Positions 38,704 through 41,294 of a DNA stretch of 64,000 bases are shown here, one piece after another. The notes beneath the pieces are model-generated. The model was not told where the DNA came from and ran no database searches. It saw only the letters and a list, made by a program, of their open reading frames with translations. The translations under genes and the position numbers were made by a program. The stretch is from an uncultured Bacillales bacterium (GTDB lineage Bacteria; Bacillota_I; Bacilli_A; RF39; UBA660): assembly GCA_947648915.1 (NCBI GenBank), contig CANSPQ010000001.1, positions 12,429 to 76,428 of the forward strand. The letters run 5' to 3'. Position 1 is the first letter of the stretch. The number at the start of each line of letters is the position of its first letter.

Positions 38704-38842
38704 CTTTGTATCACCACTTTTATTATACCAAACATTCGTAATTCTAAAAATACATTTTGAATATTTTAGAATAAATATTCCTATACTTTATAGATTAACA
38801 AAATAAAAAATATATGTTATGATAGTTACAGGATGTGATTTT

Positions 38843-39433
38843 ATGGAAGTATTAGATAAAATTCAACCAGACGAGATTAAACCAATAGAGGATATATTGA
38901 CGCAAACATTTGATTCTATTTTACGACAATACAATTCCTTACTATATGCGATTAAGGATAATGCAGGATTAAATGCAATTGGAATTGCAGAAGATGAATT
39001 GTCTAGAAAACATATTGATATTTCTGAATTTCCAAATCGGGATAAATTACAATTTTATATTACACAGTACATACAAAATATACCTATTATTGCTAGATTA
39101 CAGGAACATATTAACAATAATATCTATCCAAGAAACAATAAAAATCATGAGCAAATGAAAAAAGAACTTATGGAGATTCAATTAAATCTTAATGTCAGAA
39201 GAGAACTTTTGCATGCTTCAGAAAATGGAATACAAAAAATACTAATGGAATGGGCAATGATACAATTTATAATTGAAAATCCAACTCGCATTTCCATTTC
39301 TACTATAGAACAATTAATTCAGACTGGATATAACGGTTTGTGTGGAACTCCATTAATGAAAGAAATGTATCAGTTGATTCACCAAAATAATCAACTTAAG
39401 AAAGAACTTAATTTAATCAATAAAGCTAAATAA
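38843..39433 (+). CDS. Hypothetical protein (~196 aa)
   Basis: ORF 38819..39433. The internal start MEVLDKI at 38843 has an AGGATGTGA RBS. It is the only plus-strand gene in this minus-strand block. Confidence 0.4.
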   Translation: MEVLDKIQPDEIKPIEDILTQTFDSILRQYNSLLYAIKDNAGLNAIGIAEDELSRKHIDISEFPNRDKLQFYITQYIQNIPIIARLQEHINNNIYPRNNKNHEQMKKELMEIQLNLNVRRELLHASENGIQKILMEWAMIQFIIENPTRISISTIEQLIQTGYNGLCGTPLMKEMYQLIHQNNQLKKELNLINKAK

Positions 39434-39499
39434 AAGGACCATTAGATCCTTTTATTTATTTATTTATGTAGATTATAAACTACATATTATTACTCTTGT

Positions 39500-40972
39500 T
39501 TATTGAATTTTAAGAAGGCGGGCACTAATAAACTCCCATGATGCAGACGAGTCAACACTACAACTCAAAATATATAAACCAGCATTAGTGCCATTATCAT
39601 AGCCACCACTACCAACAACTATCATATTTCCTTTTTTTGGCCAATAAATGTCACCCACATGAGTGTTCTCATTTTCTAATGTTTCAATTGGTAATGCAAC
39701 TAAAGGATTGTCAGAATCATATCCTATTTTTGATATGTATCCCTCTGTAGCTGCATTCGCATATCCAATAGGTTGATAACATTCATTAAATTTATCTGAT
39801 TCATATTGATTTTTATTATAACAAATATATGTTTGATGGTCCTTGATATTGATTCCATCTATGAATTGAAATACATTTCCAAATATATTCTCTACTCCTC
39901 TATAAATAATTGAACTATTATCTGACCCATCTGCACTTCCAGAATGCATTCCTAAGATATCACATCCTCCACTTGCGATTGGTCCTGTATGTGATGCATT
40001 CGTATATCCTGCTCCTAGTTTTAATTGACTATTATAATCTGCATATTCTACTAAATATAATAATTGTAAGATGAAATAATGATAATCTAGTTGTCCAAAT
40101 TCATTTCCTAAATTAGTGGCATATGTTCTAAATTCAGTAATGGTATGATTTGTGAATGGCTTTACTCCACTCCTACTATGTACTCTAGTTGTATCTCCTG
40201 ACATTGTATATCTTCCTACACTAAATGCTTCACTCTTACTGTATCCTTCTTGGTAGTCTTTGGTAATTGCTATATATTCATATCCATTCTTTTGTACTCT
40301 TTTATAATAAAACTCTGGTATATAAGTTAATACTTCTCCGTTACTTCCATCAAATTTGAAGTTATCTTCTCCATACCATGCAGTTATTGTTTTCGTATCT
40401 GTATTGTAATTATAGGATTTGATATCACCCCATGGATAAATACGATCAAAATCGTTTTGTACAGAAGTTGTTCCCACTTGTGCATTTGCCACTAATCCTA
40501 CTGCATCATCAGTTCGTTCCCATGCACTTGATTCTGTTTCTATTGCTCTTTTGATTCCATATACTTTTGGTGATTCTATTACTACATCTTCTAATGTACA
40601 CGGTTCTTTATCTACTACTTTTGGACTTTCATCATCATAACCTTTTTCAACACAGTATTTTCCATATTTGGCGATAATACGCATCTTTCCATTCTCGCCT
40701 ATTACAAGTGTTCCACTACTTGGTTTTGCTCCTTTATAAGTTAAGATATCACTTGTTAAATCAATTGTTCTTTCGATTTCTTCTCCTTCTAACATCGATT
40801 CTAGTTGATAGTTCTCTGCTGCTTCTAAGATCCCATTTACTGATTCTATCGCTGCTCCTCTTCTTGACTTTTCAATCACATCCATTATCATTGGCGTTGC
40901 GATTAGTGCGATTACTGCTAGTATTACGATTACCGCTAATAATTCTACTAATGTAAATCCTTTTTTCTTCAT
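39500..40972 (-). CDS. Large (490 aa) protein with class-III (type IV pilin) prepilin N-terminus
   Basis: MKKKGFTLVELLAVIVILAVIALIATP has the canonical G|FTLxE prepilin peptidase site and methylation motif. A roughly 450-aa soluble C-terminal domain follows. GAAAGGAAG RBS. Confidence 0.6.
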   Translation of the reverse strand: MKKKGFTLVELLAVIVILAVIALIATPMIMDVIEKSRRGAAIESVNGILEAAENYQLESMLEGEEIERTIDLTSDILTYKGAKPSSGTLVIGENGKMRIIAKYGKYCVEKGYDDESPKVVDKEPCTLEDVVIESPKVYGIKRAIETESSAWERTDDAVGLVANAQVGTTSVQNDFDRIYPWGDIKSYNYNTDTKTITAWYGEDNFKFDGSNGEVLTYIPEFYYKRVQKNGYEYIAITKDYQEGYSKSEAFSVGRYTMSGDTTRVHSRSGVKPFTNHTITEFRTYATNLGNEFGQLDYHYFILQLLYLVEYADYNSQLKLGAGYTNASHTGPIASGGCDILGMHSGSADGSDNSSIIYRGVENIFGNVFQFIDGINIKDHQTYICYNKNQYESDKFNECYQPIGYANAATEGYISKIGYDSDNPLVALPIETLENENTHVGDIYWPKKGNMIVVGSGGYDNGTNAGLYILSCSVDSSASWEFISARLLKIQ

Positions 40973-40993
40973 TCAAATCTTCCTTTCTTTCTT

Positions 40994-41019
40994 AAATAAA
41001 CCATAAAAAAAAGGGGTAT
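40994..41019 (-). terminator. Hairpin GGGG(G5)-TATA-CCCC followed by U9 on the minus strand (terminator of pcrA unit); contains a C9/G9 homopolymer
   Basis: Plus strand a9-GGGGTATACCCCccccc at 40994-41019. The palindrome is GGGGTATACCCC. It lies 22-48 nt upstream of the pilin-like start. Confidence 0.5.
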
Positions 41020-41137
41020 ACCCCCCCCCGTTTACAAATAGCTAACATAATCATTCCCTACTCGCAAACTATTTTACGATTTATTTTGACATTTTTAGTA
41101 TAGCATATCGATTTATCTATTTCAATATTTATTCTGT

Positions 41138-41293
41138 TTAATCTTTATGTAATGCGTTGTATGTAATATAAAATATAAGTAAGCCTGCAAAAAATAATCC
41201 AATCCATAAAAGAGGATTACTTCCATTTGCAACAATCCATCCTTGAAAATCTTTTGCAATCTTATTAATACTATCTACAATATTTAATAACAT
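41138..41293 (-). CDS. Small membrane ORF (51 aa) between pcrA and the terminator
   Basis: Not in the ORF track. ATG at rc(41291-41293) is preceded by GGTGA and starts 1 nt after the pcrA stop. Encodes MLLNIVDSINKIAKDFQGWIVANGSNPLLWIGLFFAGLLIFYITYNALHKD. Confidence 0.3.
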   Translation of the reverse strand: MLLNIVDSINKIAKDFQGWIVANGSNPLLWIGLFFAGLLIFYITYNALHKD

Positions 41294-41294
41294 A

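Follow-up and report, generated by a model that had tools for sequence, protein, structure and literature searches.

The question raised by this locus is why a gene for a 490-amino-acid (aa) protein with a prepilin-like N terminus stands between pcrA and ligA, and what its product would do there. The locus lies in contig CANSPQ010000001.1 of an uncultured Bacillales bacterium, of which a 64-kb stretch (in the following, the window) was analyzed. A first-pass annotation, made from the DNA letters alone, had described the gene as an orphan on a 2.6-kb accessory insertion and had left its function open between a minor pilin or adhesin, a pseudopilin-fused enzyme, and a cargo of the distant Tad machinery or of a com/type IV pilus system. 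The open reading frames (ORFs) that it listed and the pcrA-ligA arrangement were all recovered by ORF calling and Pfam searches. Our reading, to which we assign a probability of roughly 0.6, is that the product of the ORF is an adhesin built as a modular type IV pilin or pseudopilin, and that its gene, on a self-contained cassette of recent insertion, belongs to a contingency family for pilus- or surface-displayed adhesins; of the proposals made at first, minor pilin or adhesin thus comes closest.

Architecture of the 490-aa prepilin

The protein and its parts map to the window as follows.

39500..40972, minus strand: 490-aa modular prepilin ORF (ORF call; mean predicted local distance difference test [pLDDT] of the AlphaFold2 model, 91)
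40958..40972, minus strand: leader peptide MKKKG with predicted prepilin-peptidase cleavage after G5 (F+1, E+5), deduced from PF07963 and TIGR02532 over residues 2 to 26
40598..40957, minus strand: pilin module (residues 6 to 125), consisting of helix α1 (residues 8 to 62) and a β-sheet of five short strands (residues 69 to 120)
39503..40567, minus strand: head (residues ~136 to 490, ~355 residues), consisting of a β-rich subdomain and a C-type-lectin fold of the variable-protein type of diversity-generating retroelements (DGRs)
39512..39613, minus strand: variable region (residues ~454 to 487), GSGGYDNGTNAGLYILSCSVDSSASWEFISARLL, with low identity to relatives and NNY-rich codons

The N terminus, MKKKG followed by FTLVELLAVIVILAVIALIA, exceeds the curated cutoffs of PF07963 (E 2e-7) and of TIGR02532 (E 1e-7) and shows a short basic leader ending in Gly, Phe at position +1, Glu at position +5, and about 20 hydrophobic residues. 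PF07963 is the sole Pfam match in the protein, and the motif is the only prepilin motif in the window. Partial matches to GspG and ComGC models are confined to residues 1 to 59 and remain far below the equivalog cutoffs (TIGR01710, 29.9 versus 88.85 bits; NF040999, 25 versus 75). AlphaFold2 modeling on a 71-sequence alignment yielded helix 8 to 62, a small β-sheet reaching to about residue 120, a linker, a β-rich region, and an α/β domain extending to residue 490. The long α1 helix lies on an antiparallel β-sheet as in pilins, and residues 1 to 125 are accordingly modeled as a complete pilin module with the class III signal MKKKG/F..E. The class III prepilin leader recognized in the first-pass annotation is thereby borne out by both the family matches and a full predicted pilin fold. 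A protein identical to the ORF product is present in public data (P0001).

Structure prediction and a Foldseek search, which the annotation had proposed as a check, gave a C-type-lectin fold for the C-terminal domain; among Protein Data Bank entries the matches were TaqVP (E 1.7e-10), Mtd (E 9e-4), and, weakly, TvpA (E 0.27). No Pfam or NCBIfam model matches the head, whereas in PHROGs residues 122 to 488 match phrog_5302, annotated as 'tail protein' (E 3.8e-51). The notion of a pseudopilin-fused enzyme or unknown cargo has to be given up, the soluble domain being a DGR-type C-type-lectin head homologous to phage tail proteins. Residues 1 to 125 and ~136 to 490 correspond to the two parts of a modular pilin, i.e., an N-terminal pilin motif and a linker-joined non-pilus domain. 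Taken together, the AlphaFold2 model and the phrog_5302 and Foldseek matches lead us to describe the protein as a predicted bimodular 'modular pilin' with a DGR-type C-type-lectin head, as Raynaud et al. use the term (PMC8179133).

Mechanistically, prepilin peptidase would cleave after G5, helix α1 would either build it into a type IV filament, where modular pilins of other kinds suggest the tip as the probable place, or hold it in the membrane like a stalk, and the head would bind a ligand fixed by its variable region.

Phage relatives of the head and the variable region

More than 3,600 homologues were found. Many stand alone, with a length of 371 aa, and others among these are fused to Mtd_N, DUF3751, or cadherin-like domains; several clusters at 90% identity contain more than 1,000 members each, which could reflect hypervariation. 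Two homologues, P0064 (locus L050) and P0091 (locus L051), each about 61% identical to the head, have phage surroundings. P0091 closes a siphophage tail module (PhageMin_Tail, Sipho_tail, Sipho_Gp37) and P0064 comes after a run of genes without Pfam assignment; RVT_1, Phage_tail_APC, and a lysin come next in both loci, with a holin besides in L050. Between the L051 variable region and one downstream repeat there are 16 mismatches, 12 of which fall at template adenines; the two are a genuine pair of template repeat (TR) and variable region (VR) and served as a positive control for the template comparisons. The contig with L051 is from a bacterial genome and has spore-coat genes next to the locus; L050 and one Bacilli metagenome-assembled genome (MAG) were obtained in the same sequencing run.

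In both loci, which are prophage DGRs, the gap between the target gene and the reverse transcriptase (RT) gene (L050:9458-10441; L051:9000-9670) holds not a single TR but three to five VR-like cassettes of about 110 nucleotides (nt) with a period of about 155 to 160, each encoding a distinct GG.W...GLW.W...GARLL segment. In L051 only the last cassette is the adenine-biased template, and the L050 variable region looks as if assembled from two cassettes, chimera-like. The literature gives no more than brief mention to multiple TRs (PMC4891356, PMC6642488).

Such close phage kinship, together with the provenance of L050 and L051 and the abundance of cell-wall polysaccharide genes in the window (judged by eye), could also mean that the heads have kept a phage specificity for bacterial surface glycans, serving attachment between bacteria or the masking of the cell's own phage receptor (superinfection exclusion) rather than adhesion to the host. 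We consider this very improbable: DGR-type lectin heads bind very diverse ligands, and nothing ties the presence of a copy to phage resistance.

The head has the organization of a DGR variable protein, with a C-terminal variable region on a conserved C-type-lectin scaffold. Relatives that are 73 to 77% identical overall retain 95 to 100% identity in several core blocks between residues 141 and 340, as against 10 to 30% at residues 441 to 480. In the window gene, 79% of the codons of the variable region are of the form NNY, versus 44% gene-wide. In a set of 35 bacterial variable regions, NNY makes up 77% of the hypervariable codons versus 54% of the adjacent 26 codons (Fisher P 1e-20), and K/E/Q/M account for 5.7% of hypervariable codons versus 12% of flanking ones (Fisher P 1e-5), both tests treating paralogues, which are non-independent samples, as separate; Asn is the commonest residue at hypervariable positions. 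The NNY excess, the depletion of K/E/Q/M, and the lead of Asn constitute the footprint expected from AAY template codons.

Is the mutagenesis still going on? An RT and a TR residing elsewhere, for example in a prophage, might mutagenize 39512-39613 and the other copies in trans. This would suit the homology of the head to genuine DGR targets, the NNY signature, and the complete difference of variable regions between otherwise similar proteins; moreover, the three to five template-like cassettes of the L050 and L051 phage DGRs exceed the need of a single adjacent target, and our view of this genome is limited to 64 kb. Within the window and the fetched loci, where RT and TR could be assessed, the searches nevertheless came back empty. 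A repeat search and a degenerate TR pattern returned nothing in the window but the variable region itself; tblastn with two phage DGR RTs yielded nothing in the window or in loci L001 to L049; and neither an RT nor a template-like cassette occurs within 10 kb of about 45 bacterial copies. On viral contigs the degenerate pattern picked up A-rich or poly-A stretches and nothing else, since all of its ambiguity codes admitted A, and it is uninformative there. The available phage template cassettes were likewise tried as the source of the bacterial variable regions and rejected, with at least 23 mismatches in 111 positions and no adenine bias.

Stability between samples argues in the same direction. 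Of 12 cross-sample pairs from ten 90%-identity clusters, nine are identical over the last 50 residues and three differ at one or two positions, while up to 40 positions differ elsewhere in the protein; P0184 was read identically on 23 contigs. In some of these pairs the differences cluster at about residues 120 to 210, which suggests gene conversion among paralogues. The comparison of variable-region codons between the window and L002 showed no position-specific DGR pattern, the divergence being too old. Finally, the variable region of the window departs from the family scaffold (GLW.W to GLYIL), including changes of scaffold Trp codons that adenine mutagenesis cannot produce. A live DGR target therefore seems to us quite unlikely. 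Because the NNY footprint is present and yet there is no RT or TR nearby, no template match, and no instability in near-identical pairs, we infer that the variable regions are fossil products of DGR-type mutagenesis, now fixed and different in each paralogue. Past adenine mutagenesis would have made them and left them frozen; thus the genome would carry a germline repertoire of differing binders, not one hypermutating gene.

The cassette, its leader, and its scattered copies

The surroundings of the prepilin gene comprise the following elements.

41295..43388, minus strand: pcrA (697 aa), upstream flank, with UvrD-helicase, UvrD_C, and PcrA tudor domains (Pfam); 88 to 96% identity to L040 and L162
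41138..41302, minus strand: 54-aa ORF with a single transmembrane (TM) segment (tm54), a conserved pcrA partner overlapping the pcrA stop (ORF call)
39407..41136, minus strand: strain-specific cassette of the pilin with C-type-lectin head, ~1.73 kb, with promoter, leader, gene, and terminator; missing from L162 and L040
39427..39458, no strand given: hairpin terminator with a 14-pair stem separating the convergent pilin gene and orf204 (terminator scan)
38819..39433, plus strand: orf204, a 204-aa near-orphan gene of an older insert layer, its 3' end remodeled by the cassette
36727..38703, minus strand: ligA (658 aa), downstream flank, with NAD-ligase domains (Pfam) and its own conserved upstream region

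Comparison of the pcrA-ligA region with relatives, which the first-pass annotation had also proposed, confirmed an accessory insertion and resolved it into two layers. In L040, from a mouse-gut MAG labelled 'uncultured Bacilli bacterium', pcrA, tm54, and ligA are contiguous, with a gap of about 280 bp between tm54 and ligA; it is 85 to 92% identical to the window at the amino acid level over the ABC transporter, pcrA, tm54, ligA, tm74, DUF3603, lipoprotein, and dacB genes, and the region 5' of ligA, TTTGGTATAAT, is conserved as well. The closest relative, L162 (pcrA 96%, tm54 89%, and ligA 98.5% identical), has the order ligA, orf204 homologue, 12 nt, tm54, pcrA; this homologue (83%) occupies the same site in L161 to L163, with the pilin gene absent. 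Copies of tm54 stand immediately 3' of pcrA in L040, L011, and L162 (70 to 89% identity). Because L162 has orf204 without the pilin gene and L040 has neither, the pilin unit (~39407-41136) is a strain-level cassette and orf204 an older, separate layer. An insertion between pcrA and ligA was thus correctly recognized, and relatives do not uniformly carry the gene here with pilus genes nearby; the insert is composite, however, and the lone plus-strand gene does not belong to the part that is strain specific, orf204 being common to the closest relatives.

The homology between the window and L162 ends at ~41137 on the tm54 side and at ~39406 on the orf204 side. A 1.73-kb promoter-to-terminator unit has thus entered the site, by these comparisons recently, with the stop codon of tm54 on one side of it and the 3' end of orf204 on the other. 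The last ~8 codons of orf204 differ from the last ~20 of the L162-type homologue, so that the insertion rewrote its final few codons. Neither target-site duplications nor terminal repeats were seen when the junctions were compared with relatives, and the G+C content of the region is unremarkable. orf204 itself has just three matches among 1.8 billion representative proteins and none in Pfam, NCBIfam, or PHROGs, and its single-sequence AlphaFold2 model (pLDDT 43) is too poor for use. A prophage remnant was considered for the insert and ruled out: its flanks consist of pcrA, ligA, and an ABC transporter and contain none of the phage structural genes seen in L050 and L051, and the unit carries its own promoter and leader. 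Farther upstream, beyond the ABC transporter and pcrA, a 281-aa ORF (45695-46540) that matches phrog_15286 (function unknown; E 3e-102) sits among chromosomal genes.

A different insert occupies the gap between ligA and tm74 in L040 (L040:7712-11768). By eye, it contains what we take to be a 342-aa RhuM-like gene and a split DUF2419-like gene. A gene with the pilin module is present too, with an apparent frameshift at ~10310-10339; it encodes an unrelated head ending in RGGDFDGGTNIAFHRAGGNAHRDYGARVVLAY, and this head is FGE/C-type-lectin-like by eye and has no Pfam match.

The scan of species-representative genomes returned 48 family loci in eight MAGs from rabbit, mouse, and other guts. In one of them, Lapin-014__bin1 from rabbit gut, the fetched loci contain at least 17 lectin-type C termini and at least 16 prepilin N termini. 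Copies occupy sites between hpf and secA, after spo0A, upstream of mraZ, and near rplI-dnaB, the pcrA-ligA site being used in the window only; all are co-oriented with the neighboring genes. The same pilin module also bears other heads, namely Big_2, an ALK_LTK_GRD-like glycine-rich domain, and unknown domains.

The cassette begins with a leader that recurs throughout this family.

41097..41125, minus strand: cassette promoter, TTGAAA-17-TATACT with TG extension (promoter scan, 10 of 12 matches)
41030..41069, minus strand: leader hairpin P1 (GTTTGCGAGTAG...CTATTTGTAAAC), abutting the G tract (minimum-free-energy [MFE] fold of the leader)
41021..41029, minus strand: G9 homopolymer, 5' arm of the terminator-like hairpin (sequence)
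41001..41029, minus strand: terminator-like hairpin, GGGGGGGGG-TATA-CCCC plus T8, 28 nt before the ribosome-binding site and ATG (terminator scan)

About 160 nt 5' of the ATG are conserved across paralogues and genomes, in the order σ70-type promoter, box AAATCATAGAATA, hairpin P1, G8-12 tract, TA(A), CCCYC, and T-run. A TTGNNN-17/18-TATAAT promoter stands at the same position in 13 of 17 aligned copies, the TTGAAA-17-TATACT of the window being the 14th. The G tract abuts P1, and the element formed by G tract and T-run lies 35 to 50 nt before the ATG in the family. The MFE fold of the window leader has a z score of -4.8 against shuffles, P1 is predicted in 32 of 33 family leaders, and its basal 8 pairs are kept in 25 to 31 of the 31 distinct sequences; RNAalifold, run on a MAFFT alignment, keeps the terminator-like G/C hairpin across the 33 leaders. 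No Rfam family matches the leader at E values up to 1. One copy beside a Tad operon has kept the promoter and lacks both P1 and the G tract.

Homopolymeric G is all but confined to this element: among the G runs of seven or more in the window and L001 to L051, 37 of 38 lie within the leader motif, with tracts of 8 to 12 G. At the L004-type locus, four assemblies with identical flanks, from different samples, differ only in having G9 or G10, and there the tract lies in the spacer of a TTGACA-N19/20-TACAAT promoter. The tract is G9 in the window, and length polymorphism of the kind that marks contingency loci was found among the 37 copies (G8-12) and at one orthologous locus (G9/G10).

What had been annotated as the terminator of pcrA, the hairpin and T-run at 41001-41029, is reassigned to the cassette leader, because it lies downstream of the cassette promoter and is conserved 5' of most family copies; although transcripts running on from pcrA may end there as well, the element moves together with the cassette. 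Expression of each copy would probably be set at this leader, by attenuation at the hairpin and T-run or by slippage in the G tract, and such control would give phase-variable adhesion, i.e., a switchable adhesin repertoire.

Two further observations concern the leaders. An 11-codon upstream ORF (MVYLRKKGRFE*; 40973-41008) starts in the T-run of the window leader, and its TGA overlaps the pilin ATG (ATGA); it occurs in the window copy only and is not conserved elsewhere. In many cassette copies of the rabbit MAG (L009, L011, L012, L015, and L018), about 130 nt before the ATG, a perfect hairpin of 11 bp, AAAAAGAATCT-TGTCAAAG-AGATTCTTTTTT, has the -35 box in its loop and a T-run after it. It is a terminator-like insulator at the 5' edge of the cassette, which the window copy is without.

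Filament machinery and comparison with known systems

No pilus assembly genes occur within 10 kb of the pilin gene, so that the term 'orphan' holds for the immediate neighborhood; as a member of a large multi-copy family placed between housekeeping genes, the gene itself is no orphan. The window does contain a Tad-like locus, about 27 kb from the pilin gene at roughly 1.3 to 16.4 kb (1334-16379), with these genes.

11256-12065: RcpC/CpaB-like protein
10134-11252: T2SSE ATPase
8433-10120: two polytopic membrane proteins
3925-4808: two TM proteins of 140 to 149 aa
2899-3906: ParA-like protein (by eye)
12496-15723: secreted, very Cys-rich protein of 1075 aa

Neither a Flp-type pilin nor a peptidase was recognized in this locus. 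In L028, a full Tad operon (two TadE genes, TadZ, TadA, TadB, and TadC) lies about 1.4 kb upstream of a family copy; between the two come a Mur-ligase gene, a hairpin terminator, and the promoter of the copy itself. A 123-aa prepilin gene between gap (glyceraldehyde-3-phosphate dehydrogenase) and pgk in the rabbit MAG (L014:5084-5455) stands in an odd and presumably highly expressed position and is a candidate for the major pilin of the family's filament.

The class III signal might serve export and anchoring alone, the lectin head being shown on a membrane stalk or short pseudopilus, with no long pilus, in the manner of the sugar-binding proteins of the archaeal bindosome. The lack of adjacent pilus machinery would be natural under such an arrangement, as would the many copies per genome, which are unusual for tip pilins; in addition, the same lectin head occurs on signal-anchor and SipW/TasA-like N termini in other MAGs, so that surface display seems to be the shared theme. 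What is conserved, however, is the full pilin fold and not the signal alone; the first ~45 residues of the pilin module are near-identical among paralogues, as expected if α1 packs into a filament; and small pilin genes of 114 to 123 aa are present in the same rabbit MAG. On this balance we regard display without a long pilus as unlikely, though worth keeping in mind.

Several points weigh against the reading of the protein as a pilus-displayed adhesin of a contingency family. The search for the genomic prepilin peptidase and type IV pilus genes proposed in the first-pass annotation returned none: no prepilin peptidase (A24 motif search), PilB/ComGA, or PilC/ComGB occurs in the window or in about 780 kb of related loci, where a tblastn search for T2SSE ATPases likewise turned up nothing beyond the Tad ATPase of L028. 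The machinery found is of the Tad type only, and Tad systems normally handle Flp-type pilins; processing and incorporation into a filament are accordingly no more than predicted. As for the leader, P1 was not recovered by RNAalifold on the MAFFT alignment, with no two-sided covariation, and is supported by single-sequence folds and end-anchored pair counts in which the changes are mostly one-sided. The G tract lies in the transcribed leader, outside both promoter spacer and ORF, so that no simple on/off mechanism follows from its length, and the G9/G10 difference is a single case that could equal a homopolymer assembly error. Furthermore, all comparators are MAGs or metagenome contigs, in which repeated families can cause misassembly, and the window copy could be drifting, given its GLW.W to GLYIL scaffold change.

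Two other parts of the window may be recorded here. Two paralogues of about 300 aa (29754-30728 and 50143-50994) carry (G-I/L-E/Q-Q)n repeats near the C terminus and resemble, by eye, recombination-promoting nucleases of the Rpn/YhgA type. Three plus-strand ORFs at 24480-28203 resemble, by eye, a gerA-type spore germination operon (GerAA, GerAC, GerAB); together with spo0A in L014, this suggests that the lineage forms spores.

Combining the readings of protein, variable region, and leader, we tentatively propose a scenario that we hold to be possible, at odds clearly below even. A lineage of uncultured gut Bacilli would have domesticated the DGR-diversified, receptor-binding tail-fiber head of its phages and joined it to stalks of type IV pilin; as a mobile cassette of 1.7 kb, the fusion would then have spread to intergenic sites between housekeeping genes. 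About 20 pilus-displayed binders would result, each gated by a previously undescribed leader (P1 plus G-tract attenuator) with stochastic expression resembling antigenic variation, and a prophage DGR, working in trans through its extra template cassettes, might renew the repertoire from time to time. If true, this would join type IV pili, phage receptor-binding proteins and DGRs, and phase-variable multigene families, which are usually separate fields, and would mean that heads by which phages recognize their hosts can be turned into adhesins by the bacteria themselves. The DGR lectin scaffold would then yield binding diversity in a second way, through many frozen paralogues under stochastic control and not through continuous hypermutation of one gene, and there would be a candidate new regulatory leader and a defined mobile cassette. 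For practical use, the heads would offer small, stable binding domains that can be retargeted, a library supplied by gut commensals.

Among known systems, the DGR variable proteins Thermus TaqVP, Bordetella phage Mtd, and Treponema TvpA have the C-type-lectin fold in common with the head. Unlike in these, no cognate TR or RT was found in the window or in the related bacterial loci examined, the variable regions are stable between samples, and the lectin is fused to a pilin instead of a phage fiber shaft, lipoprotein, or TAT signal. Phase-variable multigene surface families and poly-G-controlled pilus adhesins are exemplified by Mycoplasma Vlp/Vsa and Neisseria PilC. Here, too, there are many paralogues with a homopolymer near the start whose length varies among copies and samples; unlike there, most tracts form the 5' arm of a terminator-like hairpin in the transcribed leader, the L004-type locus alone having its tract in a spacer.

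Modular type IV pilins with grafted binding modules are, according to the survey by Raynaud et al., widespread and diverse (PMC8179133). Such pilins (PilB and PilC of Streptococcus sanguinis, which bear a vWA and a lectin module, respectively; CofB of enterotoxigenic Escherichia coli) combine an IPR012902/PF07963 module, a short linker, and a bulky ligand-binding module at the predicted pilus tip, and the bimodular fold predicted for the 490-aa protein is of the same kind. The protein differs in its head, a DGR-type C-type lectin of phage tail-fiber ancestry that does not appear in the passages of that survey considered here, and in that its genes lie outside a pil operon, as scattered paralogous cassettes, most with their own poly-G leader. 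The type V pilus adhesins of Bacteroides likewise present a hypervariable lectin-type adhesive part on a pilus of gut bacteria; their DGR is present and active, whereas here the pilus would be of type IV and the diversity is spread over many fixed paralogues (bioRxiv 10.1101/2024.11.15.621889). Our literature search found no paper combining DGRs with prepilins, a 'GspG-type pilin' domain among DGR targets being mentioned in a single line of one survey (PMC11661182). Compared with all of these, the new elements are the joining of a pilin to a phage-type DGR head in a large scattered cassette family, the apparently frozen variable regions, and the shared poly-G leader.

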